Shown here one piece after another: positions 5,064 to 58,990 of a stretch of DNA of 64,000 nt. Both the position numbers and the translations under genes were made by a program. Origin of the DNA: Stegostoma tigrinum (lineage: Eukaryota); the NCBI RefSeq assembly GCF_030684315.1, contig NC_081365.1:18912062-18976061 (forward strand), given 5' to 3'. The stretch's first letter is position 1; every line of letters begins with the position of its first letter. Under the pieces are notes generated by a model. The model searched no databases. It saw nothing but the letters and a program-made list of their open reading frames with translations, and was not told the origin of the DNA.

Positions 5064-6107
5064 CTGAAAAGGTGAAATTAAATATGAATGCAAAAAAATA
5101 CTAATACTGTATGCAAATTAATTGGTAAGATTATTTTAAAATATAGTGTTCATTGTTTAATATAATCACCATACACTGTGACACCCAAAAACAAGAGCCA
5201 ATAATGATTAAAAAATGCAAGATTAAAATAACAAAATATTTTATATGTCTGTCAATATCCGGCGCAAATCTGTTCACCCGTTTTCTAATCAGTCCTTAGT
5301 TGACTGGCTTTGCACCTCAAGGATTTCAGACTGCTTGAATGAACAATGGCTCAGAGGTAGCATTTACACTCAAGCCAGAACATTATGGGTTTCAACCACA
5401 CTGCAGACAACCCCTGGATAGCACAGGAAATAATTACAAAACCTCTGATTTACATCCAGCAAGGTACTAGCATTTCCCATCTTTATTTGCTCTTGCCAAC
5501 ATGTGACTCAAGCCATTTAACTACCAGCTGAAGAGGCCGAGGAAGACACTCAATTCAAAGGTACGCTCTGCCTACTTCATCACTGTTCTAGAATAAAGGA
5601 CAAAACACTAGGCTCTTTACATACAACTCCTTAATTACTCAACACACTATTAGCTGGCATATGCTTTAACATAACAAAAAGTCATAGCACATTATTTTTA
5701 AAAAGAAAAACTACAAAGTAATGGGATTTACAATAAAACCAGATTTATTACATGAGTTTAAATGTGAAACTGCATCTTCAACTTTAAATACCAAAGTTCT
5801 CTTCCTCCCCTTTTATAGGAACCGATTTGCTCTGCTCAGCGGATACTGAGATGAAACACTAAATGCTAACTCAAACGTCACAAAGAATAACTCATCTACT
5901 GAGACCATGAATATGCTGTAATCTAATTTAAGCAATGAAAGTGACGTATTTTATAAAATAACTATTTATACTTGTGTCCAAACATAATCTGAAACTCATC
6001 AGAATGATCATAGCTGATAAATGTATGAACAATCATTCTATTCTTAAACCCCTTTGCAAGTTGATTTGTATGCAAATGGCAACAACATACAGGATAATAT
6101 AAAAGGA

Positions 6108-6285
6108 ACAAAAACACAGTTGCTGGAAAAGCTCAGCAGGTCTGGCAGCATCTGTGAAGGAGAAAAAGAGTTAACATTTCAGGCCCGGTGACCGCACCTC
6201 AGAACTCAGACCTGCTGAGCTTTTCCGGCAACTTCGTTTTTGTTCCTGATTTGTCGTATCCTCAGTTCTTTCGGTTTTTATTTAC
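6108..6285. mobile_element. Miniature two-armed PLE (family B)
   Basis: Inverted arms, degenerate hammerhead on minus strand, TSD aatataaaagga at 6096-6107 and 6286-6297. Confidence 0.8.
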
Positions 6286-6689: not shown

Positions 6690-9600
6690 TGTGTTGCAAT
6701 TGAAAAATATTATTTCCAACACCTGAGAGCCCAGACAAACAGGTCAAGAATGAATGCCTGCAAGGTATGTAGCTTTTGCTGAGTAAGAGAGCCGAAGGAC
6801 AAATTGTAGACACAGACACATTAGGGAGGGGAGGTTACTGGAGAATTTGATCAGAAGTCACACTCGTTAGAACAGGTCACTGGTCAGGCACAGGAGAGTA
6901 TGACTGCAAGTCAGGGGGTAAAGGGATCAATGAATGTAGAAGTGAAGAAATTATAAGAAACAGTTCTGAGATGCTTGCAATGTGCATTAACCGAAGTGTG
7001 GGTTGCAAGGTGAATGAATAAGCCAAACATACTACAATCCATTCAAGTGAGGGAGTCAATAGGAATGCAGTAGTAGTAGGGGGCAGTAGAATCAGGACAA
7101 ACAGTTCTCTGTAGCCAAGAGGAGCAATCTTGATGACTGTGTTGCCTACCCACTGCCTAGATTCAGGATTTGCACTGGAAGGGATGCAGTGGCCATCATC
7201 AGAATTGGTACAAATGACACATTAGGACTGGAGAAAAAGCTTCTGCTGACAGAGAAGAAACTAGAGGCTAAACTAAATGTGGAACATCAAGGGCAATAAT
7301 CTCTGGATAACTACCTAACTACCTGGTACAGAGTAATTAAGATTAGAGATTTACATGTTAGATCAAAGATTGTTGTGAGAACAATAAGGTTTGATTCTTG
7401 GGACACAGGCATCAGTACATTGAAAAGTGAGAGATATACTGTTCAGACAAGTTTCGCCTGAACCATGCTGGTACCAGTGTTTTGATGAGTTAGAAACTAG
7501 GGCAACGGAGAAGGTAGCAAACGAAATAGTGGGGATGAGGGATCAAGTGTGGGAATACTTTATAAATTAAAAAAAGACAAAAGAGCAAGGTAGCAATAAG
7601 GAGAGTTCTGATCAGAGCAGAGAATGACAATAATGGACACAATAGAAACTTAGGAGTACGTCAGCAGATAAGGCCAGAGACTGCAAAAACAAGAAAAATA
7701 GAGTTTAAGGTTCTGCATCTGAATATACCGAGCATCCACAACAAAACAGAAAAACTAACAGGCCAAATGGAAATAATATATATGATCTGATCATCACTGT
7801 GAAACATGGCTACAAGATTACAAAAACTGGGACCTGAATGTTTAAGGGTACATGACATTTCGGAAGTTCTTTATTTGGCCTGGCTCCGTAACACAGTTTG
7901 GGTCAAGACCGACTGCTCGAGGAGAAAGCAAAAATCAAGAACTATCTTCATGCTCAAACTTCAAAAGGAAGGCTATTATATATTCATACAAAATACTGTT
8001 ATACATGGTGATTATAACTACACTAAGCTCTAATCTTATAGTTACACAAGGTAAAGACAAAATATTATCTTCCTATGTTGATCTCCATGTGCTCTCTCAA
8101 TTTTTCTTGCTAGATTATTTTAACTCTGACCACACTTGGTTATTTATGTTCAGTGATGCGCAGTTCCATGATAGTGTCAATAGGCTGCTCCAGTCTCCTG
8201 GGGCTCTCACACAACAGTCAGGAAGCTAGGATAAGACACAAAGGCAGCTCTGGTCAATGAAGTGATAATGGGAACTGCAGATGCTGGAGAATCCAAGACA
8301 ATAAAATGTGAGGCTGGATGAACACAGCAGGCCCAGCAGCATCTCAGGAACACAAAAGCTGACGTTTCGGGCCTGGACCTCTCTGAGCCTCACATTTTAT
8401 TGTCTGGTCAATGAAGGTTGATATTAGTGCAACAGTGAGAGATAAGCTTAGTCCCAAAGATAAAGATAGGTTCTACCTAGGTAAAGGTAAGAAATTGAAG
8501 CTCGGAAGTAACTTGTAGTATTAGCTTGTGGACCCCTGAACAGCAATTACATGGTATGAAGGGCTGGACAAAGAACGGTACAGTGACAATTATGGATGCT
8601 TTAATCTACATATATATTAGATGAATATGATTTCTTGTGGGGGGATATGGGCATTGCTCACATGACAGCATTTATTGCCTAACCCTAATTACTCTCAAGT
8701 AGTTGATAGCAAGCTGCACTCTGGAACATCATTAGGCTTTTGATGTAGGGACACCCAAGGTGTTGTTGAAAAGGGAGTTCTGGTAATTTGGCCTGGTGAC
8801 AATGAAGGAACAGCAACATAATTCCAAGTCAGAATGGCATGAGAATGAGGCAAAATCTAATGCAGTGGTGTCCCCATGAATATGCTGCCCTTGACCTTAT
8901 AGGTGGTAGAAATCACAGGTTTGAAGGGTGCTGTTGAAAGAGCCTTGACAAATTACTGCAGGGCATCTCATCAATGTACATCAGTGGTAATATGAGTGAA
9001 TGTCAAAATGCTGGATGGCATGCCAAACAAGTGAACTGTCTCTTCTGTACCCTAGATGGTATCAACTCTCTGGAATGTTGTAGGAGCTGCACCCACCCAG
9101 CCAAGTGAGGCGCATTCTAACACACTTGCAATTTCTAGTTGACGGACAGGTGCTGGAAACTGAATGAGTTTAGCAAAGGTAGCCTGGAACATGAATTCAC
9201 AGAATGCATTCAGAACTGTATCTCAGAACACCACATGCTAGAACCAAACAGCAGGCTATTCCAGATTCAATTGTGCAACAAGACAGAATTATCTAATGGC
9301 TTCATAGTAAGGGCACCCCTAGGTAGTATTGGTAATAACATAATTAAATGCTGCATTTCATTTGTGTGAGAGAGCAGTGAACTAAGATGAGTGCTTTAAA
9401 GTTAAGTAGAAGCAAATATGAGCATAGGACAAGAACTGGCTAATGTAATCTGTCAATTTAGGTTAATGAAAAGGCTCAATAAAGATACAGTTACTGACAT
9501 TTAAGGTAATATTTCAACAAGTTTAATACTGATATGTTCCATTGAGGAATAAAGTTTCGGGAGAAAGCCACACTATCCATGACCCACTAAAACAGTTAAA

Positions 9601-11429: not shown

Positions 11430-11620
11430 CCAGATAATACAGCATTGAACTAGAGGAACACAGCAGGCCAGGCAGTAGCAGAGGAGCAGGACAGTTGACA
11501 TTTCAGGTCGGGACCCTGCGACAGAAATTCTTCTGCCTAGCCTGCTGTGTTCCTCCAGTTTCACACTATATTATCTCTGACTCAAGCACTGGCAGTTCTT
11601 ACAATCTCTGACTGAGTTAA
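11430..11620. mobile_element. Miniature two-armed PLE (older family C)
   Basis: Imperfect inverted arms similar to family A end; flanking tagcatcaaaa at 11419-11429 and 11621-11631. Confidence 0.75.
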
Positions 11621-11840
11621 TAGCATCAAAATGAAATATCCTAAGACAACAACTGACAATGTGGCAGAGAAAACAACTAACAAAACTAAGAAACTAGTAT
11701 TAAGAGAACATTTAAAATTAAAACAAATTAACGATACACTCAATACAAGGGAATTTCAAGGCAATGCTTATCCTAAGATAATAAAATGTGAGGCTGGATG
11801 AACACAGCAGGCCAAGCAGCATCTCAGGAGCACAAAAGCT

Positions 11841-11868
11841 GACGTTTCGGGCCTAGACCCTTCATCAG
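11841..11868 (-). ncRNA. Minimal hammerhead ribozyme motif (family A)
   Basis: Exact reverse complement of 14814-14841. Confidence 0.8.
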
Positions 11869-12558
11869 AGAGGGGGATGGGGTGAGGGTTCTGGAATAAA
11901 TAGGGACAGAGGGGGAGGCGGACCGAAGATGGAGAGAAAAGAAGATAGGTGGAGAGAGTATAGGTGGGGACGTAGGGAGGGGATAGGTCAGTCCAGGGAA
12001 GACGGACAGGTCAAGGAGGTGGGATGAGGTTAGTAGGTAGATGGGGGTGCGGCTTGGGGTGGGAGGAAGGGTTGGGTGAGAGGAAGAACAGGTTAGGGAG
12101 GCAGAGACAGGTTGGATTGGTTTTGGGATGCAGTGGGTGGAGGGGAAGAGCTGGGCTGGTTGTGTGGTGCAGTGGGGGGAGGGGACGAACTGGGCTGGTT
12201 TAGGGATGCGGTGGGGGAAGGGGAGATTTTGAAACTGGTGAAGTCCACATTGATACCATTAGGCTGCAGGGTTCCCAGGCGGAATATGAGTTGCTGTTCC
12301 TGCAACCTTCGGGTGGCATCATTGTGGCACTGCAGGAGACCCATGATGGACATGTCATCTAAAGAATGGGAGGGGGAGTGGAAATGGTTTGCGACTGGGA
12401 GGTGCAGTTGTTTGTTGCGAACTGAGCGGAGGTGTTCTGCAAAGCGGTCCCCAAGCCTCCGCTTGGTTTCCCCAATGTAGGGGAAGCCACACCGGGTACA
12501 GTGGATGCAGTATACCACAATACCCTCCCTCGACCTCTTCATCTCCAACTGCCGTTGA

Positions 12559-14589
12559 GACATTAACCGCCTCAACCACTCCACCCCTCTCACCCAATCC
12601 AACCTCTCCCCTGCAGAACGGGCAGCCGTCCACACCCTCCGCTCCAACCCCAACCTCACCATCAAACCCGCAGATAAGGGTAGCGCAGTGGTAGTATGGC
12701 GCACTGACCTCTACATCGCCGAGGCCAGACGCCAACTCTCCGACACCACCTCCTACCGCCCCCTCGATCATGACCCCACACCCGAGCACCAAACCATCAT
12801 CTCCAACACCATTCATGACCTCATCACCTCAGGGGACCTCCCACCCACAGCCTCCAACCTCATTGTTCCCCACCCGCACACGGCCCGTTTCTATCTCCTT
12901 CCCAAAATCCACAAACCTGCCTGCCCTGGTCGACCCATCGTCTCAGCCTGCTCCTGCCCCACCGAACTCATCTCCACCTATCTGGACTCCATTTTCTCCC
13001 CTTTGGTCCAGGAACCCCCTACCTACGTCCGTGACACCATCCACGCCCTCGACCTCCTCCAGGACTTCCAATTCCCTGGCCCCCAACACCTCCTCTTCAC
13101 CATGGACGTCCAGTCCCTATACACCTGCATTCCGCATGCAGATGTCCTCAAGGCCCTCCGCTTCTTCCTTTCCCGCAGACCCGACCCGTCCCCCTCCACT
13201 GACACCCTCATCCGCCTAGCCGAACTCGTCCTCACCCTCAACAACTTCTCTTTTGACTCCTCCCACTTCCTACAGACTAAGGGGGTCACCATGGGCACCC
13301 GCATGGGCCCCAGCTATGCCTGCCTCTTTGTAGGTTACGTGGAACAGTCCCTCTTCCGCACCTACACAGGCCCCAAACCCCACCTCTTCCTCCGGTATAT
13401 TGATGACTGTATCGGCGCCGCCTCTTGCTCCACAGAGGAGCTCGAACAGATCATCCACTTCACCAACACCTTCCACCCCAACCTGAAGTTCACCTGGGCC
13501 ATCTCCAGCACATCCCTCACCTTCCTGGACCTCTCAGTCTCCATCTCAGGCAACCAGCTTGTAACTGATGTCCATTTCAAGCCCACCGACTCCCACAGCT
13601 ACCTAGAATACACCTCCTCCCACCCACCCTCCTGCAAAAATTCCATCCCCTATTCCCAATTCCTCCGCCTCCGCCGCATCAGCTCCCACGATAAGACATT
13701 CCACTCCCACACATCCCAGATATCCAAGTTCTTCAAGGGCCGCAACTTTCCCCCCACAGTGATCGAGAACGCCCTTGACCACATCTCCCGTATTTCCCGC
13801 AACACATCCCTCACACACCGCCCCCGCCACAACCGCCCAAAGAGGATCCCCCTCGTTCTCACACACCATCCCACCAACCTCCGGATACAACGCATCATCC
13901 TCCGACACTTCCGCCATCTACAATCCAACCCCACCACCCAAGACATTTTTCCATCCCCACCCCTGTCTGCTTTCCGGAGAGACCACTCTCTCCGTGACTC
14001 CCTTGTTCGCTCCACACTGCCCTCCAACCCCACCACACCCGGCACCTTCCCCTGCAACCGCAGGAAATGCTACACTTGCCCCCACACCTCCTCCCTCACC
14101 CCTATCCCAGGCCCCAAGATGACATTCCACATTCAGCAGAGGTTCACCTGCACATCTGCCAATGTGGTATACTGCATCCACTGTACCCGGTGTGGCTTCC
14201 TCTACATTGGGGAAGCCAAGCGGAGGCTTGGGGACCGCTTTGCAGAACACCTCCGCTCGGTTCGCAACAAACAACTGCACCTCCCAGTCGCAAACCATTT
14301 CAACTCCCCCTCCCATTCTTTAGATGGCATGTCCATCATGGGCCTCCTGCAGTGCCACAATGATTCCACCCGAAGATTGCAGGAACAGCAACTCATATTC
14401 CGCCTGGGAACCCTGCAGCCTAATGGTATTAATGTGGACTTCACCAGTTTCAAAATCTCCCCTTCCCCCACTGCATCCCTAAACCAGCCCAGTTCGTCCC
14501 CTCCCCCCACTGCACCACACAACCAGCCCAGCTCTTCCCCTCCACCCACTGCATCCCAAAACCAGTCCAACCTGTCTCTGCCTCCCTAA
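12559..14589 (+). CDS. PLE reverse transcriptase + GIY-YIG endonuclease (open frame, 5'-truncated, no native start)
   Basis: IKPADKG, LPKIHK, GRPIVS, TMDVQSLYT, MGTRMGPSYA, RYIDD, FLD; Cys linker CNRRKCYTC; VVYCIHCTRCGFLYIGE..R..EH; stop TGA at 12556-12558 upstream. Confidence 0.93.
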   Translation, partial: DINRLNHSTPLTQSNLSPAERAAVHTLRSNPNLTIKPADKGSAVVVWRTDLYIAEARRQLSDTTSYRPLDHDPTPEHQTIISNTIHDLITSGDLPPTASNLIVPHPHTARFYLLPKIHKPACPGRPIVSACSCPTELISTYLDSIFSPLVQEPPTYVRDTIHALDLLQDFQFPGPQHLLFTMDVQSLYTCIPHADVLKALRFFLSRRPDPSPSTDTLIRLAELVLTLNNFSFDSSHFLQTKGVTMGTRMGPSYACLFVGYVEQSLFRTYTGPKPHLFLRYIDDCIGAASCSTEELEQIIHFTNTFHPNLKFTWAISSTSLTFLDLSVSISGNQLVTDVHFKPTDSHSYLEYTSSHPPSCKNSIPYSQFLRLRRISSHDKTFHSHTSQISKFFKGRNFPPTVIENALDHISRISRNTSLTHRPRHNRPKRIPLVLTHHPTNLRIQRIILRHFRHLQSNPTTQDIFPSPPLSAFRRDHSLRDSLVRSTLPSNPTTPGTFPCNRRKCYTCPHTSSLTPIPGPKMTFHIQQRFTCTSANVVYCIHCTRCGFLYIGEAKRRLGDRFAEHLRSVRNKQLHLPVANHFNSPSHSLDGMSIMGLLQCHNDSTRRLQEQQLIFRLGTLQPNGINVDFTSFKISPSPTASLNQPSSSPPPTAPHNQPSSSPPPTASQNQSNLSLPP

Positions 14590-14813
14590 CCTGTTCTTCC
14601 TCTCACCCATCCCTTCCTCCCACCCCAAGCCGCACCCCCATCTACCTACTAACCTCATCCCACCTCCTTGACCTGTCCGTCTTCCCTGGACTGACCTATC
14701 CCCTCCCTACGTCCCCACCTATACTCTCTCCACCTATCTTCTTTTCTCTCCATCTTCAGTCCGCCTCCCCCTCTCTCCCTATTTATTCCAGAACCCTCAC
14801 CCCATCCCCGTCT

Positions 14814-14841
14814 CTGATGAAGGGTCTAGGCCCGAAACGTC
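14814..14841 (+). ncRNA. Minimal hammerhead ribozyme motif in PLE 3' end
   Basis: CUGAUGA-A-GGGU(CUAG)GCCC-GAAA-C-GUC; loopless palindromic ACGU stem III as in dimer-dependent minimal hammerheads of PLEs. Confidence 0.8.
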
Positions 14842-15814
14842 AGCTTTTGTGCTCCTGAGATGCTGCTTGGCCTGCTGTGTTCATCCAGCCTCACATTTTA
14901 TTATCTTGGATTCTCCAGCATCTGCAGTTCCCATTATCTCTAATGCTTATCATAAGATGGAAACTGACACCCAGATGAACTTCAGGTCCTGACATTGCAA
15001 CCACATGATTCTCATTTACAATAGCTTAATTAACCAAGAGGCACCTTGGCATTCAATTAGAGGCACCAAGTTCTCCCAGAAGCTGGGAGCTGACTGCCTG
15101 AACAGGTGACAAACGCAGATTAAAGCTTTTATCAAGGCTTCCTTTTGGAGGAGGCAGCTCATCAGAAGGCCAGGAGCTGAAAAGCAAAATAAAATCGATC
15201 CTAACGAATTTAAGGTAATGTGCTGGGTCTGGCACCAGCTGTGAAAAAAGAAAGTAAACGTCACAGCAACAAATTTAATGGTATCAAAAACTGAGACAAA
15301 ACAGTATTCTCATGCTCTTTTATCTCTCCTTTCACTTGCTAAAGTAGTCATTAGAAGCTTGAGCTCGAATCAAGAGTAATTATTTGGCTTTCATGTTTGA
15401 TCTGCCATTCAAAATGGTTATAGAATATATGATTTGTGACTTTATTTCCACATTCCTGCCTACCTACAATAACTTTAGACTCCCTTAATGATGGGAAATG
15501 TTTTTTACAACAGGGGCCCTCGAGTGTCTCACTTTGTGTAAGTGTTAATAATAAAAGCTGTCAAGGAATTCATCAGGAAATTTCTATATGTAGTTGCATA
15601 TGCACAGACACACTTTGCTAGTACAGCATTGTTTAAATGATCAGATTACGGAATTTTAGCAATTTCTTCCCTTGCCCAGGCTCTCGAAGTATCAATGAAT
15701 TTACATTTCTGTCCCAAGAAAATATCTGCAAAGTTCCAAAGAAATTCAGCAAGTGTTTTCTGTACTTTTTAAATTTAATTAAATTGGGAAACAAAAGAAA
15801 ACTTTGTCACTTAC

Positions 15815-20866: not shown

Positions 20867-23418
20867 TGTGACTGGTTTGTTAGTTCACAGACATTTCATT
20901 ATCCTGCTGGGTAACACCATCAGTGCAGCCTCTGATGAAGTGCTGTTGTATTTCCCACTTGGTATTTAAACTCTGGGGTATGCTGGATTTGATTACCTCA
21001 TTTCCGGTTTTCCTTCGTAGCGGTGTATATGTAGGGTCCAGTTCTATGTGTTTGTTGATGTCCTTCTTAGTGGAGAACCGGGCCTCTAGGAATTCCTGTG
21101 CCTGTCTCCATTTGGCGTCCTAGGATCCTGGTGTTGTCCCAATCAAACTGGTGGTTCTCCTTATCCATGTGGATGGAGGTGAGTGAGTATTAGTCATTTT
21201 TTTGTTGCTAGTTGGTGTTCACGTACTCCTGCGGTTAAATTTTCTTCCTGTCTGTTCAATGTAATGTTTGATGCAGTCCCTGCATGGAATTTTGTACATT
21301 ACTTTGGTTCTGTCCATACTGGAAAAGGGGTCTTTGGTTTGAGTTTGCAGTTGGCGCTGGGCTGACATAAGTTTGTGTGCCACTCTGATGCCCAATGGTC
21401 GTAGGAGTCTTGTGGTCAGTGTGGATATACGGTAGGGTCATGAGTGTGTTAGGCCATGCAGTATCTTCCTGTTGCTGTTCATGAGATGGGTATCGACGGA
21501 CCCTATTGTTGGGGTATCTGTTGTCCTTGAATACTTTGCGGGGGTACTCTTCTTTTTGGTGTTCTTTCGGGTTGCTACAGTGCTTTTTGTTGCTTTTTTA
21601 AATTGTGTTTTGACGCAACTTAGTTTGTGGGTGTTGGGGTGGTTACTGTTGAAATTCGGGACACATCCATGTGCGTGGCTTTTCTGTGCACCTTTGTTAG
21701 AAATTCTCAAATGGCCCTGCATTCTACCATGACATCCAGGAACACTGCTGCTCTTTCGTTCTTCTTTGGTGAATTTGATAATTTGATGCCAGTGAGAGTG
21801 TTATTTATTAGTTGGTGTGTCTCCTCTAGTTTGGTCCATTTGATAAGGACAAAATGGTCATCATCGTATCAGATCCATGGTTCAGGCTGGATCTACAGAA
21901 GGGCCATGTTTTCGAGTCTCTGCATCACCACTTCTGCTATTATTCCAGAAACAGATGATCCCATGGGTATCTCATTGATCTGTTCACAGATTTAGCCATG
22001 AAAAGTAAAGTGGGTCATAAGGCATAGGTCCAGTAGTTTCAGCTTGTCGTCTGCGGAAATGGTGTCATTCAGGTCTCCTTCTTTTAGTAGTGTTGCTGTG
22101 TTTCTTTTGCCAGTGGTGTGTCAATCGACGTGATAGGAGCAGTGATGTCAAATGACACCATGGTTTCATCAGTGTCTATCCTTAGGTCCTTGAAGGATTT
22201 GAGGGATTCCTGGGCTGAGTGCATTGAGTGGGGTGACTTGCTGACGAGGTGCTTTAGTCTTTGTTGCAATTCCTTGGCTAACCTGTGTGTTGGTTCCCTG
22301 CTAGGGAGACTATGGATCTGAGGGGTACTTCCAGTGTACTTTTGGGAGCCGCAGAATCGGGGGAGTCTGTTCCTGTTGCTTTCATTTTTGGGTAGTCCAT
22401 TTTGATGATCTGTCCGATCTGTTCAAGTCTCTTAAGAATGTTAATTACTTTATGACCCAGTTATAGGATCAGGTCCATTTGCACTTGCCAGAATGTGTTC
22501 GTGCCTCCTGGTAATGTCTGTGCTGTAGTGAGGTAATCCGTATGTTTAGTATTACCGTCATGTGTCCTTTGTCTGCTGGTTGTAAATGATGTTTTTGTCT
22601 TATTTCAGTCCTTCTAGGGCCTTCCTTTCAGATAGTGTTGTGAGTGTCAAGTTCTTTCCTTCTGATCAGTATCCATGCCGCTGTCTGTCTTGTGGCTTGT
22701 TGTGTTTCCTCATTGATGCTGTTGGTCTTCAGTATGGCTTCTAGTGCGGCTAGGAATTCTGCCTTGTTAGCATTTCTATGGTTGCAGTCGAGTCCATGTA
22801 TTAGAACAGCTTTGTCTGTGTGTGTTAGTTTCCTGTCTGAAAGCTTTCTTATCCAAGTGTCCGACCTATGGTTGTCCTTTTGATGAGATAGTTTAGCTAA
22901 TTTTTCTTGTAGGATCTGTCTTTTCTTCGTTCTTGTTATCTATTGACGGACATTAATGACTCATTCTAGGGCTACTGTCCAGCCTGGGTTGGTATGGTTT
23001 AGGATTAATGTTTTTTGATGTGTACCTTCTCGGTCATATCTAAGGAGCTGGCTGTGTGCGTCATTGATCACTACCTCCACCATTCTGCAGCAATTATGTT
23101 CTGCCATCCTATGTGCATGTGGGTTGGTGATGGGGGAGTGATTTGTATCTCACATTGTGTGGTAATACATGGTTCCTGAGGCATCCATGTAGGAAGTAGA
23201 GTTCCTTGCACGTAGTGGTCTGTTGTTTGATGTAGTTTTCCCATTTCTGGGCCAATTTGAGTGTACTTCGTCTGTAGATTCCTAAGGTTCTTGAGTAGAA
23301 TTGTAGCTTGAGTTATGGATGCTGTAGTTAGTTCGCAAATATTTCATTATCCTGCTGAGTAACTTCATCTAACCACAGCATCCACAACCCGAGCTACACA
23401 TTTACTCATGAACCTTAG
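20867..23418 (-). mobile_element. Degenerate full-length Poseidon/Penelope-type PLE (family D)
   Basis: Remnants MVSFDITAPITSID, PMGSSVSGIIAE, NSNHPNTHK, TLPYI, HQFDWDNTRIL; direct repeat 20879-20921 / 23327-23369 containing a hammerhead-like motif; inverted repeat 23282-23331 / 23369-23418; TSD agaagctaattc at 20855-20866 and 23419-23430. Confidence 0.88.
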
Positions 23419-24779: not shown

Positions 24780-24891
24780 AGATAATGGGAACTGCAGATG
24801 CTGGAGAATCCAAGATAACCAAGTGTGAAGCTGGATGAACACAGCAGGCCAAGCAGCATCTCAGGAGCTCAAAACGTCAGCTTTTGTGCTC
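24780..24891. mobile_element. Miniature two-armed PLE (family A)
   Basis: TSD tttat(a/g)caacagcag at 24765-24779 and 24892-24906. Confidence 0.85.
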
Positions 24892-24927: not shown

Positions 24928-26165
24928 CTCTGAAATTCCCTACTCTACCTTTCCTAAAAGTACTGTGGGTTTCCTGTCATGGTTAAAGAATTGCCAACTG
25001 GAGAGGAATTGAGGATGGGAAACTTTTGCATACTTGCATCCAAAAATGAATTTTAAAGATGAAAATGATGTAGACACTATGGACACTGTAGGTCAACTGA
25101 CTGCATGTGGACTGAAGTAGTTTAAGGTGGTGGCTCATCACCACCATATCATGGGCAATGAGGGACAAGCAATAAATGTTGGTCCAACTAGCAATGCCCG
25201 TGTCTCACAAGTGTGTAAAAATATTCTCATTTCAAACAACAATTATCCAATTTTTATCTTTCTCATATATGGTTTTCATTGAAAACAGTGCTTCTGTAGC
25301 CAAGATTGTGTTTCTTTCATACAAGTTATCATCTATATGTGTCAGTTATCACAATTCCTAAACGCTATATTCCATTTAAAAGACCAACAGTCTTAAGTGT
25401 TGTAGCCAATTCCTCTATATCATTAATTTTGAATAGAACGATACATGTAAAGTAGATCTATTGAGTTGGAGGTCTGGGACCAATAATGTGACATCCCTGC
25501 CATTTCCCAATTTACATGATTTTACCCTAAATTAGCTTTAAATAACTATGACATAACAGACAGTGAGAAAAATGATCACAAAGAATCCCTTTTTATATCA
25601 TATCTAATCTTTGAAGGTACAAAAAAAATCAAAAATCTTTAAGTCTTTCAACTTCTCTCTGCAAAAACACAGCAAATCAAGATTGTTGTGGTTGTTCTTT
25701 CAGTATTTCATTATTGATGAGTACAAACATGATATTCTTATCACCCAAGTTTCATTAATTTGATGAGCATTTTGTTCTGACAGATTCACAATTAGCAGAT
25801 ATCTATGTAGCTCACAGCAGTATTGTCTCAGTCCTGGTTTTACTTTTACTTAAACTTTTAATCCACTTTCAGTCTCATTTTACTTTTACCTTCATAAGTA
25901 GTGTAATGCTAATTTTACATTAAGTCACAGTTCAACATTTTTGAGCAATCAATTTTTCACATTTGCAAGAGAAAGTCAAAATATTTATTAATTTTTTCAC
26001 ATATTTCACTCCATAGTGTCTACATCATTTTCATCTTTAAAATTCATTTTTGGATGCAAGTATGCAAAAGTTTCCCCTCCTCAATTCCTCTCCAGTTGGC
26101 AATTCTTTAACCATGACAGGAAACCCACAGTACTTTTAGGAAAGGTAGAGTAGGGAATTTCAGAG
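24928..26165. repeat. 156-bp near-perfect inverted repeat (24928-25083 / 26010-26165)
   Basis: Direct comparison shows one mismatch; 926-bp spacer. Confidence 0.95.
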
Positions 26166-26944
26166 TTTAAGCCCAACAACAGTAATGGAATGGCAAGAAA
26201 GTTCAAAGTCAGGGTAGGATGTTCTAATGGAGAGGAAATTGCTGTGAGCGGTAAATGTTGCTGATTTGAAAGATATTGTTGAAGGTGCCTCAGCAAGCTA
26301 CTGCAATGCATTTTGCATGGGTGTTTGTGTAGCCTGAATATAACCTATCACTTTTCATCCCACGTTCAAATGTTTGCAGGTATCACTACAAACAGCATAG
26401 AATGTTTTGCTACCTAATAAAGAGCAACTGGTGAAACATCATCCCTGGTTCTGACCTTATGATGGAAGAAGATGGATGAAGCAGCTGAAGATGGTTGAGG
26501 CTAGGATGCTACTGAGGAACTCTTACAGCAACGTCTTGGGGTTGAGATGATTGGCTGTCGCTACTGAATGCCATCAACCTTTGTGCCAGGTAACTATAAC
26601 TCAAATCCGTGGAAAGAATTATACCCAAATTCACATGGACATGAATTTTGTTAAGGATTCTTAATGCCACAATCAGAAAAATGCTCCCTTAATGTCAAGC
26701 AAGTCACTCTAACCTTGCCTTTGGATTTCATATCTTTTATCCATATTTGGAATAAGGGTGCATCAAACTGAGCAGCACAGAGTGAATCCTTTTGGATAGC
26801 ACTGTCAATGGAATTTACAACACTGTTCTGATTATTTTTATTCACTCATGGAGTCTGAGCACTGCTGGGTACAGCACTTGTTGCACATCCCTAAATATGG
26901 AAACTGAGGTTGTGGTGAGCTGTCTTCTCAAGAGAGTTCAAGAG

Positions 26945-27505: not shown

Positions 27506-28048
27506 CTAGAGTGTTGCTGGTGCTGCACACAACCAGATCGATGGGTCAGTAATTGGTCTCATGGGACTTGTCTTGTTTTGCGTGAGAAATAGATGCCTGG
27601 TATACAATCATAGAATCTCCAGCGCATGAAAGCGGGCCATTCAGCCCATTGAGTCCACAGACCTAGGCCCCACCCTATCCTTGTAATCCTGTACATCCCA
27701 TGGCTAATCCACCTAGACTGCACATTTTTTAGGCTAGGTCAGAAGTCACATGACACCTGGCTATAGTCCAATAGGTTTATTTGAAATCACAAGCTTTCCC
27801 AGCACTGCCCCTTCATTAGGTGATGTGAAGAGAGTACCCAGGCACAGAACTGATTATGAGAAAGATCAAATGGTGTGAGTGGAGATCACTGCAGGTAATC
27901 AAGAGTGTTAGACAGTGACAGTCAAGTGTCCACAGCTGAATAACAAGTGAAGGGATGACCTATAGTCCGATTAATTGACACAGAGAGATAACTACAAAAA
28001 AATTGAAAATAAGGTGTTGCTGGAGACAAATCAAATGACTGAAATAAC

Positions 28049-28172
28049 AGATAGTAAGAACTGCCGATGCTGGAGTCTGAGCTAACAGCTTGGAGCTGGA
28101 TGGACACAGCAGGGCAGGCAGCTTTCCTGCTCCACTAATGCTGCCTGGCCTGCTGTGTTCCTCCGGCTCTAC
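28049..28172. mobile_element. Miniature two-armed PLE (family C) nested in family E
   Basis: TSD actgaaataac at 28038-28048 and 28173-28183. Confidence 0.8.
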
Positions 28173-29202
28173 ACTGAAATAACGTGCTAGGTATAAGAGA
28201 TGCATGCCGAGGGTCTAACCAAAGTAACAAGTAATCCAGAACCGTACAAACTATTAAGGTAGAGGGATCGCAACAACTTATCAAGGTGATGGTGTCAAGA
28301 CAGGACTGTCAGTAAGATTTTGTAGAACAGCAAGGTGGGGTCACATGTAATGCAATGTGAACCCAAGATCACAGCTGAGGCTGTCTTCATGGGTACAGAG
28401 CTTGGCTATCAGTTTCTGCTCAATGATTCTGCATTGTTATGTATCTTGAAGGCCGCGTTGGAGGATGCTTACCAAAAGATTGAAGGCTGAATGCCTCAAC
28501 TGGGAGAAAACAATCCTGTCTGGCGAATGTTGTGCAGTGTCCATTCATCCATCCTTGCCTGCAGCTGCTACCTAATAAAGAGCAACTGGTGAATCACATG
28601 AGTATCTGCCGTGTACATGGTGAGTAGTGTTCCCACATGATGGTAGTATCCATGTCGATGATCAAAAATGTCTTGCAGAGGTTGCCGTAGGGTTATTGTG
28701 TGGTGTTGTGGTTGATGTTATCCTGAAGGTTAGGTAATTTGCTGCGAATAATGGCCTTTGGTGGTTGTTTGAAGGCAAGAAGTGGAGACGTAGGGATGAT
28801 ATTAGCAAGATGTTCATCATCATCGACATGTTGAAGGCTGCAAAGAACATGGCATAGTTTCTCTGTTCAGCGAAGTACCAGACAACGAAAGGTACTCTAT
28901 CAGTTGTATCCTGTGTCTGTCTTCAACGGAGGTTGTTGCGGCACATCAGAACTGGCAACTGCTCAGTTGAACATCATATCCCATTTTTGAGGGTGTCTTT
29001 CAACATCTTTAGGTGTCCGTCACATGCTTCCTCGTCTGACCAGATCCTGTGTACAGAGTTTGTCCATAAGGGATGGCTTCTTTAACAAGTTTAGGGTGGA
29101 AGCTAGAGAGGTGTAGCATTGTGAGGTTATCTGTGGGCTTGGGGTAGAATGAGGTACTAAGGCGTCCATCCTTGTTGGACAAGCATGTGTCCAAGAATGA
29201 GA

Positions 29203-29340
29203 CCTCCCCCTCTCTCCCTATTTATTTCAGAACCTCTCCCCATCCCCCTCTCTGATGTAGGGTCTAGGCCTGAAACCTCAGCTTTTGTACTCCCGAGATG
29301 CTGCCTGGCCTGCTGTGTTCATCCAGCTGCATACTTTGTT
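29203..29340 (+). mobile_element. Family A PLE 3' fragment nested in family E
   Basis: Homologous to 14764-14900; mutated hammerhead. Confidence 0.8.
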
Positions 29341-30560
29341 AACCAGTGGTCTGTAGTAAGCCTGATTGTGGATAAAACTTGGTAATATTGTTGCATAGTC
29401 ATTTCATTAATTTCTAACTGTGAGTCCAGACAAAGAAAATGTCAATGTACCTAGGGTATTGCAATGGTTAGAGGTCCTGTGCAGCAAGTCATCTTGCTTG
29501 AATTTGCACATGAAAACGTTGGCATATAGGAGTGCAAATGTGGTCCCCGTGATGTTCCGTCTGTCTCGATGAACAGCTGGTTGTCAAAGGTGAAGATGTT
29601 GTGGTCAAGGATAAAGCAGATGAGTATTAGGATGGAGTCTGCAAATTGGCAGTTGTTCATGTTGAGTCCTGAGGCTGGTGCAGCAATGCTGGTTTAAAGT
29701 GCCGAAATGTCCATTGCGACGAGGAATGTCCCTGGTTCAACTGGTCCACGGGTGCCGAGTTTCTGTAACAAGTCTGTAGTGTTGCGATAGAAGCTGATGT
29801 TTCCCTGCATAATGGGTTTCAAGATCCCCCTGACACAGCCAGAGATGTTCTCACACAGGGTCCTGTTGCCTGATACAATGGGGCATTCAGGTATGTTGGC
29901 TTTGTCTATCTTTGGAAGGCAGAAGTCTCCTACGTAAGAAATACACAGGTAAGCATCCTCCAAGGCAGCCTTCCAAACACACAAGACAGAATCGCCAAGC
30001 AGAAACTGATAGCCTAGTTGCATACCAATGAATACAGCCTCAACCTGTGATCTTGGGTTCACATCATACTACATGTGATACTACCACCACACTGTTCTGT
30101 AAAATCTTCCTTACTGAACTGTCTTGACACCATCACTTTGATAACTTGGTATGATCCTTCTACCTTAATTAGTTTGCACAATTTTGTATTTCTTGTTACT
30201 TTGGTTAAACCCTCTGCACCAACTTATTTTTCATTTTTTGTAATTATTTCTATGCATCAATTAATCAGACTGTAGGTCATCCCTTCACTGTTATTCAATT
30301 GTTGACTTTACTTACACCATCGACACACTTGATGCCCTGCAGAGATCTATTATTCTGCCTGTCAACACACCACTCGTGCCATCTGTGTGCTCTTTCGATC
30401 TCTGATTATCAATTGTGTGCCTGGATATTCTCTTCACTTCTCCTGATGAAGGGGTGGCACTTTGAAAGCTTGTGATTTCAAAGAAACCTGTTGGACAAAA
30501 GCCTGATGTCATGGGACCATTGACGTTGTCCACCACAGTTCAACGCTGGCACCTCCTCAG

Positions 30561-30712
30561 CTTTGGACTGTGGGAGCAATCTGGAGCACCTGGAGGAAAC
30601 CCACACAGACATGGGGAGAATGCGCAAACTCCACACAGACAGTTGGCTAGGATCGAACCTGGGTCCGTGGTGCTGTAACACAGCAGTGTTAACTATTAAG
30701 CCACACCGCCAC
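30561..30712 (-). mobile_element. HE1/V-SINE-like SINE, 5' half (3' half at ~27610-27730)
   Basis: tRNA-like head and V-domain-like ctgtgtggagtttgcgcattctccccatgtctgtgtgggtttcctcc on minus strand. Confidence 0.75.
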
Positions 30713-32273
30713 CCATGGCAGATGCCCAGTTTGGTAGCTCACAAACTTGGCAGTCTATTCACCACTAATACGAAGAACATAAAAGCTGCCCTATAAAATA
30801 TATTACACAGGCTTATAGAAATGAACAACAGTGAACGTTGGATGAAGATGTTAAAATAGAGCAAGGCCAAACACAACCTAATTATGCAAGAAATGGAGGA
30901 GGTGGATTCGGAGCAGCTACTCAAGGGTAAATCCAAATCTGACATGTTGGAATCTTTCAAACAGCAGTTGATTAAACTGCAGGACAGGCATGTTCCTGTG
31001 AAAATGAAGGGCAGGATTCAGGACAGCTGGGTTACAGGAGAAATTATCATCTTAGTCCAAAAAAAGGACACATACCAAGATTGAGGCAACAAAACAAAAC
31101 AGATGAAATCCTTGAAGAATATGCAGAAAGTAGGAAAGAACTGAAACAGTGTGTTTGTAGAGCTAAAAGGAGCTATGAAATGTCCTTGGCCAGTGGGATT
31201 AAGGAGAATCCCAAAGCATTTTATGCTAAAAAATGAGTAGGCCCACTTAAGGATAAAGGAGGAGGGTTATGTATGGAGCCAGAAGAAGTGGATAAGATCC
31301 TTAGTGAGTGCTTGACATCAGTATTCACCAAAGAAAGAGGCACGAGGGATGTTGAGGTTAGGGAAAAGTACATGAATACCCTCAGAAAGGTCAATGTAAT
31401 GGGGGAGAAGTGTTGGATGTCTTGAAATACATTAAGTTAGACAAGTCCCCAGGGCCAGGTATGATCCATCCGAGGATACTGTGGAAGACAAGGGAGGAAA
31501 TAGCTGGGGCTTAATGGATCTCTGCATCCTCTTTGGCCTCAGACAAGTTCCAGAGTACTGGAGAATGGCCAATGTTGTTCCTTTGTTGAAGAAAGGAAAC
31601 TGAGAAAATCCAGGTAATTACAGGCCAGTAAGCCTGACATCAGTGGTAAGCTAGCTGCTGGAGAAGGTATTGAGAGACAGGATTTATTCACATTTGGAAG
31701 CAAATAGACTTGTTAGTTATCAGCTGCATGGGTTTGTGCAGTGAACGTCTTACCAATTTGATTGAGTTTTTAAGATGACAAGAATAAATGATGAGGCAAG
31801 GACAGTGGATGTTGTCTCTGTGGGTTTTACTAAGGCTGGTACAGAAGATAAAGTCTCATGGGATCTAGGGCAAGTTGGCTAGATGGATACAAAACTGGCT
31901 TGGTCATAAAAGAGAGAGAGAAGCAGTGGAAGGGTGCTTTTCGGAATGGAGATTAGTAACTAGTGGTGTTCTGCAGGCATCAGCACTAATACCTTTGTTG
32001 TTTGTAATACCTTTGCTGTTTTCCTACAGATCATTGATGTGATCTGATTATTCATTTTGCAGATGATACCAAAATTGGCAGAGTTGCAGATAGGGAGGAG
32101 GATTGTCAAAAGGATACAGTGGAATACAGAAAGATCACAGATTTGGGTGGAGAAATGGAAGGTGTCAGTTAATCCAGACAAAATCGAGCTGATGCATTTT
32201 GGAAGACCAAATTCAAGTGTGAATTATACAATAAATGGCAAAAGCCTTAGAAGCACTGACATTTGGAGGTATC

Positions 32274-37846: not shown

Positions 37847-38075
37847 TCAGAGATAATGGGAACTGCAGATGCTGGAGATTCCAAGATAATAAGATGTGAG
37901 GCTGGATGAACACAGCAGGCCAAGCAGCATCTCAGGAGCACAAAAGCTGACGTTTCGGGCCTAGACCCTTCATCAGAGAGGGTGATGAAGGGTCTAGGCC
38001 CGAAACGTCAGCTTTTGTGCTCCTGAGATGCTGCTTGGCCTGCTGTGTTCATCCAGCCTCACATCTTATTATCTT
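37847..38075. mobile_element. Miniature palindromic PLE (family A)
   Basis: ~93-bp perfect inverted arms around a 7-nt loop plus tail; TSD gaaatc(c/g)ccaagta at 37833-37846 and 38076-38089. Confidence 0.93.
37949..37976 (-). ncRNA. Minimal hammerhead ribozyme motif (family A)
   Basis: Intact core identical to 14814-14841. Confidence 0.8.
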
Positions 38076-44713: not shown

Positions 44714-44868
44714 TAAAATAAAACAAAGAACTGCGGCTGCTAGAAATCCAAAACTAAAACTGAAATTCATGGAGAACAGTTCTGATAGACCCAAAATGTT
44801 AACTTTGCTTTCTCCCCACAGATGCTGCAAGACCTGCTGAGTTGCTCCAGCAATTTCTGTTCTTGTTC
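44714..44868. mobile_element. Miniature two-armed PLE (family B, old)
   Basis: Tail arm plus inverted arm; degenerate TSD cacggtcagtct / catagtcagcct. Confidence 0.6.
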
Positions 44869-45800
44869 CATAGTCAGCCTGCCCAGACCCAGGGTGTGGG
44901 AGCCAGGCGAGGGTACCAGTCAGTTCCTTTAAAGTGATAAGAACATTGAGCATGCCAGCATTCCCTCACGCCAACCTGCATTAAGTCTTCGCACAGGGTT
45001 CTGTGAAAATCCTCACTGAATAGATCAAGAGAGAACATAGTTTGTAATAGGCCCTGATGCCCTCTATATCTAAGACAAGGAACTCAATGCAGTCAATAGC
45101 ACAAGCAGTTGCTGACAGCCCTCTCCGTCTTCTTGCCTGGAGTAGAAGGGAAAGCCATGATCCAGGTCCCCAAGGATCCAGACCCATGATCTCAAACATA
45201 CCACAGGAACCAATGAGTTGCACATACCTCAGGATGCCCTTTCTTTCTTTATATAAACCTTCGCACCCCCCCCCCCCCACCACACCCCCAAAAGGGCAGG
45301 TCCAAATCAGGCTGACTGAAAAGAGATTCCAGGTCAAGCACCACCGCCTCCAACATCTCAATTCTCGATTTCCACCACTGTCAACACATCACATATTCGA
45401 GAAAAGGCCAGGCATGAATCTTACTCACATCCCATCAGTCTCTAGGAGGGGAAGCCGTCAAACCTTAATTCTTAAGCTGGTCCAAAGCCAATGGAACAAT
45501 TTTCAGGACCACTCATTCTCCAGCAGCAGATTGTTACAAGTTCCAGCACTTGGACCTCAGCTGGAATGGGTGAGCTCTGCCCACACTAGATGGTGGTCCA
45601 TTTTTGGCACTTGCTGCACGGATGCCACCAGGGGTATGAAGGAGACGCATACCCATGTAACATGCAGGTAGTTGATTCTCAAAGCTCCGACCTGAGGCCT
45701 CGGAAAAGTAAAGAAGTGATGGAGTCAAGGTGGAGATTCCACCAGATCAAAGGGCTTGACAAAGTCCCTCAGTCTCTTCAACACTGAACTGGCATCAACA

Positions 45801-47105
45801 GGTAATGAAATGTGAGGCTGGATGAACACAGCAGGCCCAGCAGCATCTCAGGAGCACAAAAGCTGACATTTCGGGCCTGGGCCCTTCATCAGAGAGGGGG
45901 ATGGGGTGAGGGTTCTGGAATAAGTGGGGAGAGAGGGGGAGGTGGACCGAAGATGGAGAGAAAAGAAGATAGGTGGAGAGGACAGTATTGGTGGGGAGGT
46001 AGGGAGGGGATAGGTCAGTCCAGGGAAGACGGACAGGTCAAGGAGGTGGGATGAGGTTAGTAGGTAGGAGATGGAGGTGCGGCTTGGGGTGGGAGGAAGG
46101 GATGGGTGAGAGGAAGAACCGGTTAGGGAGGCAGAGATAGGTTGGACTGGTTTTGGGATGCAGTGGGTGGAGGGGAAGAGCTGGGCTGGTTGTGTGGTGC
46201 AGTGGGGGGAGGGGACGAACTGGGCCGGTTTTGGGATGCGGTGGGGGAAGGGGAGATTTTGAAGCTGGTGAAGTCCACATTGATACCATTGGGCTGCAGG
46301 ATTCCCAAGCGGAATATGAGTTGCTGTTATTGCAACCTTCGGGTGGCATCATTGTGGCACTGCAGGAGGCCCTTGATGGACGTGTCATCTAAAGAATGGG
46401 AGGGGGAGTGGAAATGGTTTGCGACTGGGAGGTGCAGTTGTTTATTGCGTTTCCATTTCCACTCCCCCTCCCATTCCTTAGATGACGTGTCCATCATGGG
46501 CCTCCTGCAATGCCACAATGATGCCACCCGAAGGTCGCAGGAACAGCAACTCATATTCCGCTTGGGAACCCTGCAGCCCAATGGTATCAATGTGGACTTC
46601 ACCAGCTTCAAAATCTCCCCTTCCCCCACCACATCCCAAAACCAGCCCAGTTCGTCCCCTCCCCCCACTGCACCACACAACCAGCCCAGCTCTTCCCCTC
46701 CACCCACTGCATCCCAAAACCAGTCCAACCTGTCTCTGCCTCCCCAACCGGTTCTTCCTCTCACCCATCCCTTCCTCCCACCCCAAGCCGCACCTCCATC
46801 TCCTACCTACTAACCTAATCCCACCTCCTTGACCTGTCCGTCTTCCCTGGACTGACCTATCCCCTCCCTACCTCCCCACCTATACTCTCCTCTCCGCCTA
46901 TCTTCTTTTCTCTCCATCTTCGGTCCACCTCCCCCTTTCTCCCTATTTATTCCAGAACCTTCACCCCATCCCCCTCTCTGATGAGGGGTCTAGGCCCGAA
47001 ACATCAGCTTTTGTGCTCCTGAAATGCTGCTGGGCCTGCTGTGTTCGTCCAGCCTCACATTCCATTATCTTGGATTCTCCAGAATCTGCAGTTCCCATTA
47101 TCACA
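45801..47105. mobile_element. 1.3-kb fold-back family A PLE
   Basis: Minus arm 45803-46450, plus arm 46451-47104 with tail; TSD gcatcaaca at 45792-45800 and 47106-47114. Confidence 0.93.
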
Positions 47106-51491: not shown

Positions 51492-51661
51492 AGATAATGG
51501 GAACTGCAGATGCTGCAGAATCCGAGATAACGAAGTGTGGAGCTGGAGCCTAAGCATGGAGCTTTTTCTGATGAAGAGTCCAGGCTGAAACGTCAGCTTT
51601 TGTGCTCCTAAGATGTTGCTTGGTCTGCTGTGTTCACCCAGGTCCACACTTTGTTTTCTCG
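51492..51661. mobile_element. Miniature two-armed PLE (family A-like) with filler at arm junction
   Basis: TSD gaactgg(g/a)cagg at 51480-51491 and 51662-51673. Confidence 0.85.
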
Positions 51662-56943: not shown

Positions 56944-57146
56944 GAAATAATGAACTGCAGATACTGGAGAATCCAAGATAACAAAGTATGAAGCTGGATG
57001 AACACAGCAGGCCAAGTAGCATCTCAGGAGCACAAAAGCTGACATTTCAGAGCTCTGATGAAGGGTCTAGGCCCGAAACGTCAGCTTTTGTGCTCCTGAA
57101 ATGCTGCTTGGCCTGCTGTGTTCATCCAGCTTCACACTTTGTTATC
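56944..57146. mobile_element. Miniature two-armed PLE (family A)
   Basis: TSD tataattaagttca at 56930-56943 and 57147-57160. Confidence 0.92.
57055..57082 (+). ncRNA. Minimal hammerhead ribozyme motif (family A)
   Basis: Intact core identical to 14814-14841. Confidence 0.8.
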
Positions 57147-57862
57147 TATAATTAAGTTCATCACGGTTCTGCTAACGTCACCTGGGCTCAGGCAAAGCCG
57201 ATGAAGGAGTACCCTGAAGACGCAGCTGGGACGAGATAGTGATTTCGGGGCAAGAAAGCCACGCCAGGGTCAGACCAGAAGCCCCTACCAAAGAAGGCCG
57301 CCACACCGGGTCACTGTAAACCACTGTCGCTGGGCTGGAGAAGTCTCCTTTCCCCCAAATGACACTTCTCTTGGCGCTGCTGCCAATCGGTCATCCATCC
57401 TTATAGCTGATGCTTCTGCTCCTTCATGTGCATGGGCCAAGCTGTGGTCCTGGTGCCTCAGTCCATACTGCAAGTCTTGGTCCAGGGCCTTCTCTTTGCT
57501 TGAAGGGAGACCCCAGGCTGGGTTGGAGCTGTATCTGGCTTGTCCTCATATTGCTGCCATCAGTGGCCTCCTCCTCCCAAATGCCTTTCACCAGGCTTTA
57601 AAGAAAAGAAACCAAATAAAGGCAATTCAATCCGTTGAGCCTGCTCCTCCATTTGATACAATCATAACTAATCTCATCTCGTCTTCAGCCCCATTTTCCT
57701 GCTCATTGCCTTTAACCCATTAGTAATTAAAAATGTCAAATCTCTTCCTCAGACTTATTTAATATCCTGGTCTCTGCTACACTCTGAAATAGTGAATTCA
57801 ACAGATTCAAGATTTTTTGGGAGAAGTCATTCTTCCTGGTGGTGAAGAAGGTCTGTGGGATA

Positions 57863-58242: not shown

Positions 58243-58990
58243 AAGGTATTCAGGATGTTTGCCTTCATTAGCCAAACCATAGAACATAGGAAAAGGGGAG
58301 TTCTTCTACAACTTGGAACACTAGTTCTGATCCCTACCCTATCAGAAGAGTGTGAGTGCACTGGAGAGGGTACAGAGGAGATTCTTCGGAATGTTGCCTG
58401 GATGAAAAGTCTCAGTTATGAGGAGACACCATATCGCTGGGTTTGTTTACTTTGAAGCAAAGGATGACAAGGGAGTATTTGATTGAGGCATACAAAATGA
58501 TGAGAGGCATAGGGAAAGTAGATAGTGATAATCTTTTCCCCATGACATGTGTTTAAGGTCAGAGGACATATAATGTGAGGAGCAAGTGGTTTAGAGGAAA
58601 GCTGAGAAAAAAATCTTTCACCCAATGAGTGCTAGAAATATGGAACGTGTTGCCTGAGAGAGCCATGGAGGCAGACACTGTCATAACATGTAAGAAGCAT
58701 CTGGATGAATACTTAAAATGCCAGGCCATATTAGGTTATGGACCATGTGCAAGTAAGTGGGATTGATATAGTTTGGTGAAATGTGAGGCTGGATGAACAC
58801 AGCAGGCCCAGCAGCATCTCAGGAGCACATGTGCTCCTGAGATGCTGCTTGGCCTGCTGTGTTCATCCAGCCTCAGATTTTATCTTGGAATTCTCCAGCA
58901 TCTGCAGTTCCCATTATCTTTGATATAGTTTGGTGTTTGTTAGTTGGCATAGACGTGGTAGGCCGATGGGCCTGTTTCTAAGCTCATGAT
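58243..58990 (+). mobile_element. CR1 LINE 3' fragment
   Basis: Degenerate C-terminal ORF2 and tail. Confidence 0.7.
58779..58919. mobile_element. Miniature loopless palindromic PLE (family A)
   Basis: Centre gagcaca|tgtgctc at 58829/58830; TSD ttgatatagtttggtg at 58763-58778 and 58920-58935. Confidence 0.93.

Follow-up and report, generated by a model that had tools for sequence, protein, structure and literature searches.

Based on the anatomy of the Penelope-like elements (PLEs) in a 64,000-nt stretch of repeat-rich shark DNA from Stegostoma tigrinum (contig NC_081365.1, positions 18,912,062 to 18,976,061; hereafter the window), we propose that PLE insertions are made by twin priming at two start sites, which we hold to be the best explanation for all copies at a probability of roughly 0.6. 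The copies in question consist of two inverted arms, one of which ends in a tail, and in eight of the 14 that were scored neither arm contains the other. Pure fold-back of a cDNA cannot make these eight non-nested copies without later deletion.

The reference for family A coordinates is the young copy at 11770 (copies are named by window position; Table 1), which places the hammerhead-like core at 14814-14841, the tail-less end at ~14906 and the tail end at ~14941. Its open reading frame (ORF), the best of the window (12559-14589, 676 aa), encodes a reverse transcriptase (RT) followed by a GIY-YIG-type nuclease with two core cysteines and has a CX4CxxC linker; based on this combination, family A is a PLE of the endonuclease-bearing (EN+) kind, probably Neptune-type to judge by the linker. 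The tail measures 35-36 nt in family A and in a second family, E, and none of the 14 two-armed copies has a clear tail on both arms.

The two arms of a copy are inserted in the same event, as a single outer target-site duplication (TSD) encloses them in 11 of the 14 copies, the TSD not being significant in E, 6091 and 44714. TSDs were tested for 21 candidate insertions, each against 150 random pairs, and 13 scored above all 150; 57884, a near-symmetric two-armed element with a 17-nt spacer and no significant TSD, and the single-arm copies 29203, 32271, 53830, 54087, 62783 and 63139 were left out of the counts. All 14 window junctions differ from one another.

The tailed arm contains the tail-less arm in 8261, 11770, 37850 and 58779, and at 11770 this bears out the original prediction, which had named the tailed arm as the long one at 11773. 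The tail-less arm reaches further 5' in ten copies (6091, 11432, 20867, 24780, 28049, E, 44714, 45800, 51492 and 56944), the tailed arm does so in three, and one is symmetric, a bias of 10 vs 3 among the asymmetric copies (p=0.046). The non-nested copies are E, 11432, 24780, 28049, 51492, 45800 (by 32 nt), 6091 and 44714, five of the eight with a significant TSD. The cleanest of them is 24780, in which the 3' end of the second arm lies at the stop of the tailed arm (~14850) and abuts the intact TSD, a twin-priming geometry of the L1 type with an overlap of 4-5 nt. Arms abut with the same overlap at 20867, overlap by 22-73 nt in several copies, and share ~570 nt in E, 748 nt in 11770 and 612 nt in 45800.

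The polarity predicted earlier for 20867, 24780, 51492, 56944 and 44714, with a tail-less arm longer than the tailed one, was recovered in all five, with a TSD above all 150 random pairs in each except 44714. The further claim, that the second arm holds sequence absent from the first, stands for 24780, 51492 and 44714 as non-nested copies, but 20867 and 56944 had to be given up as proof against fold-back. The long arm of 20867, which is full-length, has a tail copy of its own at the 5' end (score 66), a possible source for the 49-nt arm by fold-back, so that the insertion is nested the opposite way; this long arm ends at the hammerhead edge of its own family, as six of the 12 family-A-like tail-less arms do. 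At 56944 the palindromic junction center, AGAG/CTCT, suggests a symmetric palindrome with an 18-nt loss (hammerhead stem) on the tailed side.

Later deletion is unlikely as a general explanation, because the tail-less arms keep an exact 5' end and the tailed arms do not: in family-A-like copies six of 12 tail-less arms begin at 14812-14815, as against none of 12 tailed arms (Fisher p=0.014). Furthermore, sequence is missing on the tailed side in all seven unambiguous older copies (p=0.008); since a deletion at the center should not favor the tailed arm, these losses speak against deletion.

Family E is represented by 27738-30560, an old PLE inserted into a repeat that we take to be a short interspersed nuclear element (SINE). 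The long arm (minus strand, 29947 to 27738) matches amino acids ~353-880 of the 881-aa RT protein P0130 in tblastn and hence holds the RT in 5'-truncated form, the GIY-YIG core being partly deleted near 28550. The arms of ~600 bp and ~2.2 kb that had been predicted here, the latter with the RT, are confirmed at 0.61 kb and 2.2 kb, with later insertions (28049-28183 and 29203-29341) making up ~275 bp of the long one. The tailed arm is an inverted copy (29948-30524) of the last ~570 nt of the long arm followed by 36 extra bases; its inverted alignment to 27738-28507 matches in 458 of 560 columns (82%; 72-79% by blastn), and the arms are joined head-to-head without spacer at 1-2 nt of microhomology. 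The 36-nt tail was not found in the long arm, where its best local score is 22-23 against a self score of 72 (184 random stretches give a median of 18 and a 95th percentile of 24; the positive control, 20867, scores 66), and the extra ~1.4 kb of the long arm (28508-29947) finds no genuine counterpart in the tailed arm, its best scores there being 25 and 30. With the tail missing from the long arm and ~1.4 kb missing from the short one, neither arm of E contains the other. Fold-back from a tandem RNA was considered for E and rejected, there being no internal tail. By the nuclease deletion in the long arm lies a 31-bp patch (28566-28596), 97% identical to 26408-26438 some 2.2 kb upstream, which is possibly a templated repair insert.

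We also aligned contigs of four public runs to the family A reference, two from organism B, which holds the locus, and two from organism A (375,732, 463,174, 60,275 and 77,797 matching contig records per run). Position 14813 is a common 5' end, with loose ends accumulating in front of it (536, 548 and 96 for three runs), as they also do beyond 14941 (1031 and 1046). Among 15 of 929 joints, whose counts are lower bounds in three runs and are aggregated rather than per copy, an opposite-strand joint of 14813 to 14911 occurs in all four runs and both organisms (at least 6, 5, 1 and 3 contigs). Its shorter side is at most 31 nt, the distance from 14911 to the tail end, and is too short to be anything but a tail-only arm; we therefore read the joint as a tail-only arm joined to a hammerhead-edge arm, in twin-priming geometry. 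The organism A runs hold 0.05-0.06 of the words of the E locus, a value that says nothing on orthology.

As for the template, both arms of a copy carry alleles that few other arms of the window have (8261 at 14903, 37850 at 14897, and several in 45800, 51492 and 11770), and the two copies with a tail-less arm above 500 nt are the same two with a tailed arm above 500 nt (p=0.015); the rank correlation of arm lengths overall is not significant (rho 0.18, p=0.58). These shared alleles and the pairing of long with long suggest that the arms are non-independent draws from the RNA pool, from one RNA or source element. The original prediction had the second arm templated independently from RNA, which overstates the case; it is better to say that the arms were primed separately on one and the same RNA or source. 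Microhomology between the start of the TSD and the continuation of the element amounts to 13 nt over eight tail-less outer ends against 2.9 expected (p=0.0007), and to 18 nt over ten tailed outer ends against 3.1 expected; the latter test is partly circular, as the continuation beyond 14941 was derived from the loose-end consensus of the public contigs and may reflect target preference.

In light of the above, we posit that the RT/GIY-YIG protein would nick both target strands, at positions that TSD lengths place ~9-17 bp apart, and that each 3'-OH would prime reverse transcription on the element RNA, the distal site giving the tailed arm and a site ~35 nt upstream the tail-less arm. The arm ends, together with in vitro data on PAc (Poseidon of Anolis), point to these two sites. 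A single RNA molecule or source element would most likely have supplied both cDNAs. The upstream-primed cDNA, with a free path, would often run on to a favored 5' end, the hammerhead edge, where the RNA itself probably begins, while the tail-primed cDNA would have to displace the other and might halt immediately (tail-only), halt tens or hundreds of bases on, or pass it; such a race would allow either arm to be the longer. The two cDNA 3' ends would then be joined, often via microhomology, and filled in. For family E this would mean a tail-less cDNA of ~1.9 kb and a tailed cDNA of ~0.6 kb. A bolder version, to which we give distinctly less credence, is that twin priming is the normal, programmed integration of EN+ PLEs, with a dimer that primes both target strands at two fixed sites on one RNA; the one-sided tail, the inverted pseudo-long terminal repeat (pLTR) and the variable arm lengths would then all result from the two reverse transcriptases racing each other.

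A number of observations weigh against twin priming, and several of them are what one would expect of cDNA fold-back, in which a tail-primed cDNA folds onto itself as its own template, the resulting strand undergoes cutting or joining at the tail-less site, and non-nested copies arise by later deletion at the unstable center of the palindrome. The original prediction had named as its counter-case young copies that invariably have the other arm within the tailed one, and this is indeed what the window shows: all four of the youngest copies (8261, 11770, 37850 and 58779, with arm identities of 96% or more) are nested, and all ten copies with the tail-less arm further 5' are under 96% identity or have an overlap too small for dating (nestedness vs age, Fisher p=0.001, with the 96% cut picked post hoc). 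This age pattern is what fold-back and decay would give; a difference in behavior between subfamilies would give it too. Counting TSD-supported copies only, the bias toward the tail-less arm falls to 7 vs 3 (p=0.17, not significant), and an old copy whose tail-less arm is very short may pass as a solo. The copy 58779 is a perfect palindrome without spacer, 56944 is nearly one, and 45800 is nearly symmetric. Shared rare alleles and coupled arm lengths also fit fold-back, one dominant source element or gene conversion, and the microhomology at tail-less ends is likewise expected under fold-back with end joining. Family E is ~18% diverged, is internally deleted, and has no significant TSD (8 bp with 2 mismatches, a score equaled by 83% of 150 random pairs), so that E alone cannot exclude later deletion; the claim that the second arm is no hairpin copy therefore holds for the eight non-nested copies but is not proven by E. 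The joint evidence covers 15 of 929 joints and lacks the outer end of the 14813 arm. Moreover, an inversion joint, 13884/13967, has depths of 424 and 1215 in two runs, against ~8-57 for the listed single contigs; this junction is common to tens of copies, and some junctions multiply as units. An internal deletion joint, 12918 to 13557, is similarly common to tens of copies (depth 517/1185).

Self-priming and EN-mediated resolution have already been suggested in print, in the portions of PMC3846280 and PMC8557442 on which we draw, and fold-back is possible for the nested subset. As an account of all copies we consider it unlikely: it would need a deletion on the tailed side in each of the seven unambiguous older copies, with the tail-less arm intact to one base, and two deletions at 24780, one of them flush with an intact TSD, and the joint of a tail-only arm to 14813 recurs in two organisms.

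Somewhat less probable still is dual priming in which a protein dimer supplies each target strand with an RNA molecule of its own and the two products are truncated independently. Overlaps of up to 750 nt, far above the internal duplications of L1 (median 22 bp), are most simply had from two templates, a dimer is predicted for PAc, and the arms of 58779 differ at site 14868, a weak indication as it is one site, both alleles of which are present in other copies. Set against this are the rare alleles common to both arms in five copies, the pairing of long arms with long, and the 5' ends of 45800, which fall within 32 nt of each other at ~650 nt. The high depth of the 13884/13967 joint could instead mean that the inverted junction pre-exists in the template, as a read-through transcript of a head-to-head copy yielding one cDNA with an asymmetry inherited from its masters; this we regard as improbable, given that no two window junctions agree, that the origin of the first asymmetry is left unexplained, and that the joint may be embedded in a different amplified repeat. 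Two separate insertions, the second into the first in opposite orientation, were rejected as a general model on account of the single TSD and are largely refuted for TSD-bearing copies, in which both 3' ends face outward with no remnant beyond, even if PAc can nick its own pLTR (PMC11167929, in the text available), tail-to-tail joints are common in organism B and no TSD is demonstrable for E.

Table 1. Two-armed PLE copies and associated features, in window positions
Feature	Position	Strand	Structure	TSD
Family E tail-less long arm	27738..29947	-	5'-truncated decayed PLE ORF (RT core to C-terminus), 3' region, pLTR without tail	
Family E tailed short arm	29948..30560	+	ORF C-terminus, 3' region, pLTR, tail	
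Family E tail, 36 nt, tailed arm only	30525..30560	+	after the arm homology ends, before the SINE resumes	
Decayed minimal hammerhead-like motif (CTGATGA..GAAA), family E pLTR	30443..30470	+	counterpart in left arm	
5' part of interrupted SINE-like repeat	27696..27735	+	aligned to uninterrupted copy near 41105-41260	27728-27735 at its end: possible degenerate TSD, not significant
3' part of interrupted SINE-like repeat	30561..30693	+	repeat family D14	
Nested mini-PLE in E	28049..28183		tailed arm (-) 28049-28122, tail-less arm (+) 28119-28172; 4-nt junction microhomology	perfect, 11 bp
Nested single tail-less family A fragment in E	29203..29341	+		none
Young family A reference PLE	11770..14944		tail-less arm (-) 11770-12519, tailed arm (+) 12520-14941 with 676-aa RT/GIY-YIG ORF (12559-14589)	17 bp, 1 mismatch
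Full-length decayed Penelope/Poseidon-type element	20867..23418		tail-less arm (-) 20867-23369, 49-nt tail-only arm (+)	perfect, 12 bp
Copy 24780	24780..24891		tailed arm (-, family A ~14850-14941), second arm (+, 14830-14854)	15 bp, 1 mismatch
Copy 11432	11432..11620		tail-less arm (-) from 14813-equivalent, tailed arm (+) from 14863-equivalent; non-nested	perfect, 11 bp
Copy 51492	51492..51661		tailed arm (-, 57 nt), 19-nt filler, tail-less arm (+) from 14813-equivalent	12 bp, 1 mismatch
Copy 45800	45800..47105		near-symmetric arms ~645 nt; tail-less arm 32 nt longer at 5' end	9 bp
Copy 56944	56944..57147		tail-less arm starts 22 nt further 5'; ambiguous	perfect, 14 bp
Copy 58779	58779..58919		perfect zero-spacer palindrome, tailed arm contains tail-less arm	perfect, 16 bp
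Copy 37850	37849..38075		young; tailed arm contains tail-less arm	14 bp, 1 mismatch
Copy 8261	8263..8402		young; 119-nt tailed arm contains 20-nt tail-less arm	perfect, 14 bp
Copy 44714	44714..44870		old; short tailed arm (-), tail-less arm (+) from hammerhead 5' edge	not significant
Copy 6091	6090..6283		old; tail-less arm (-) from hammerhead 5' edge, tailed arm (+); left arm's outer end uncertain	not significant

Regarding the proteins, the closest named relatives of the family A ORF are from Stegostoma, Rhincodon and Chiloscyllium (91%, 87% and 75% identity); relatives carry PF00078, some also PF01541, and the ORF itself matches RVT_1 at E=5e-6, under the Pfam cut-off, and a PDB sequence search with it gave no match. 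P0130 is 33% identical to it across 629 aa, nuclease region included. The CCHH-type nuclease core, with two cysteines between GIY and YIG, reads VYCIHCTRCGFLYIGE in family A and MYKIPCRDCIKHYIE in the 20867 element, and is partly deleted in family E, for which the CCHH-type assignment rests on the relative P0130. The CX2-5CxxC linker between RT and nuclease is CNRRKCYTC in family A and CNSILCKTC in P0130, is decayed in E and is absent in 20867. The minimal hammerhead core pattern has nine matches in family A against 0.09 expected, and one in family E, where 7 of 100 shuffles also give one; an Rfam scan gave no hammerhead match, only sub-threshold hairpin matches, and minimum-free-energy folding of pLTR and tail was no better than that of shuffles. 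A 31-nt pLTR pattern was found at 0 loci in viral contigs and 0 in metagenome contigs. The 5' ends of the arms at 28119 and 58830 either coincide with the cleavage position predicted for the hammerhead (following the 14841-equivalent) or lie 6 nt beyond it, and may reflect ribozyme-cut templates.

Several further arrangements were observed. Opposite-strand joints of 14904-14906 to 14938-14943 occur in at least 82 and at least 91 contigs of the organism B runs and in none of either organism A run; we read them as tail-to-tail junctions, from insertion into the element's own pLTR or from sense-strand self-priming. The motif ATTATCT is present at both the tail-less end and the tail end of family A. 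A go-back joint from 14938 to 14814 (125 nt; at least 13 and at least 11 contigs) marks direct tandems of a short, retrozyme-like hammerhead-plus-tail unit. If twin priming holds, self-targeting at the tail-less site, as in these tail-to-tail and go-back joints, would also build partial tandems. Single-armed, tailed and 5'-truncated family A copies with perfect TSDs of 14 and 11 bp lie at 32271-32853 and 62783-62977; they are ordinary one-primer products beside the two-armed copies. A two-armed PLE-like element of another family (57860-58245) is near-symmetric around a 17-nt spacer, its TSD not being significant. At the tail-less end of the full-length element, 20867-20878 is a 12-nt filler with an inverted 7-mer of the adjacent flank. 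An inverted 156-bp pair, 24928-25083 and 26010-26165, is 99% complementary at a distance of 926 nt in otherwise old sequence and could stem from inversion with duplication, gene conversion or an assembly artefact. A 137-aa frame at 6-419 (minus strand), without a match in Pfam, resembles a fragment of an LTR-retrotransposon RT.

The elements themselves are ordinary, abundant repeats, the structure seen in the window is known PLE anatomy, inverted arms with a one-sided tail having already been published, and the mechanism goes little beyond published data. The window copies show no structural difference from EN+ PLEs (Neptune-type for A and E, Penelope/Poseidon-type for 20867): they share the single ORF with RT and C-terminal GIY-YIG, the pLTR with a putative minimal hammerhead motif, the inverted 5'-truncated copy, the tail of 30-40 nt at one end and the TSD. 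The comparisons that follow draw on part of the text of each source cited. For PLEs, an inverted 5'-truncated copy is described as common, with the tail at either end and attributed to EN-mediated resolution, and how tandem and inverted structures form is named an open question (PMC8557442); the tail has also been described as optional on one of the inverted pLTRs, and palindromes at junctions have been interpreted as self-priming (PMC3846280). The per-copy analysis of containment is our addition over these two accounts. With ~14 two-armed copies per 64 kb, the shark genome makes fold-back and two-strand priming countable against each other, and if twin priming is the rule, a single mechanism would underlie the tail and the inverted repeat of elements that form the sister group to telomerase RT.

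During target-primed reverse transcription by PAc in vitro both target strands are cleaved and extended, two RT start sites bracket the tail, a dimer is predicted, and the steps after first priming are unvalidated; its start sites have no homology to the cleaved DNA, whereas the window copies have 0-5 nt of microhomology at both ends, above chance (PMC11167929). The main text of that article draws no link between two-strand extension and inverted genomic arms. In the literature covered, none of the papers puts forward twin priming as the origin of the inverted arms of PLEs; it may have been published already, and S1-S2 of PMC11167929 may bear on it. The portions consulted of bioRxiv 10.1101/2024.12.14.628481, PMC8969392 and bioRxiv 10.64898/2026.07.22.740005 added nothing on the mechanism of inverted arms. 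The closest parallel is the twin priming (5' inversion) of L1, in which both nicks prime on the same RNA within one TSD, the cDNA ends are joined by microcomplementarity and the product lengths are correlated (bioRxiv 10.1101/2024.08.27.596794). In L1 the second primer acts at spurious internal sites and the overlap has a median of 22 bp (same source), whereas in the PLE copies the second site is mostly fixed, ~35 nt upstream, there is no poly(A) tail, and overlaps reaching 570-750 nt yield an inverted repeat rather than the simple inversion of L1.

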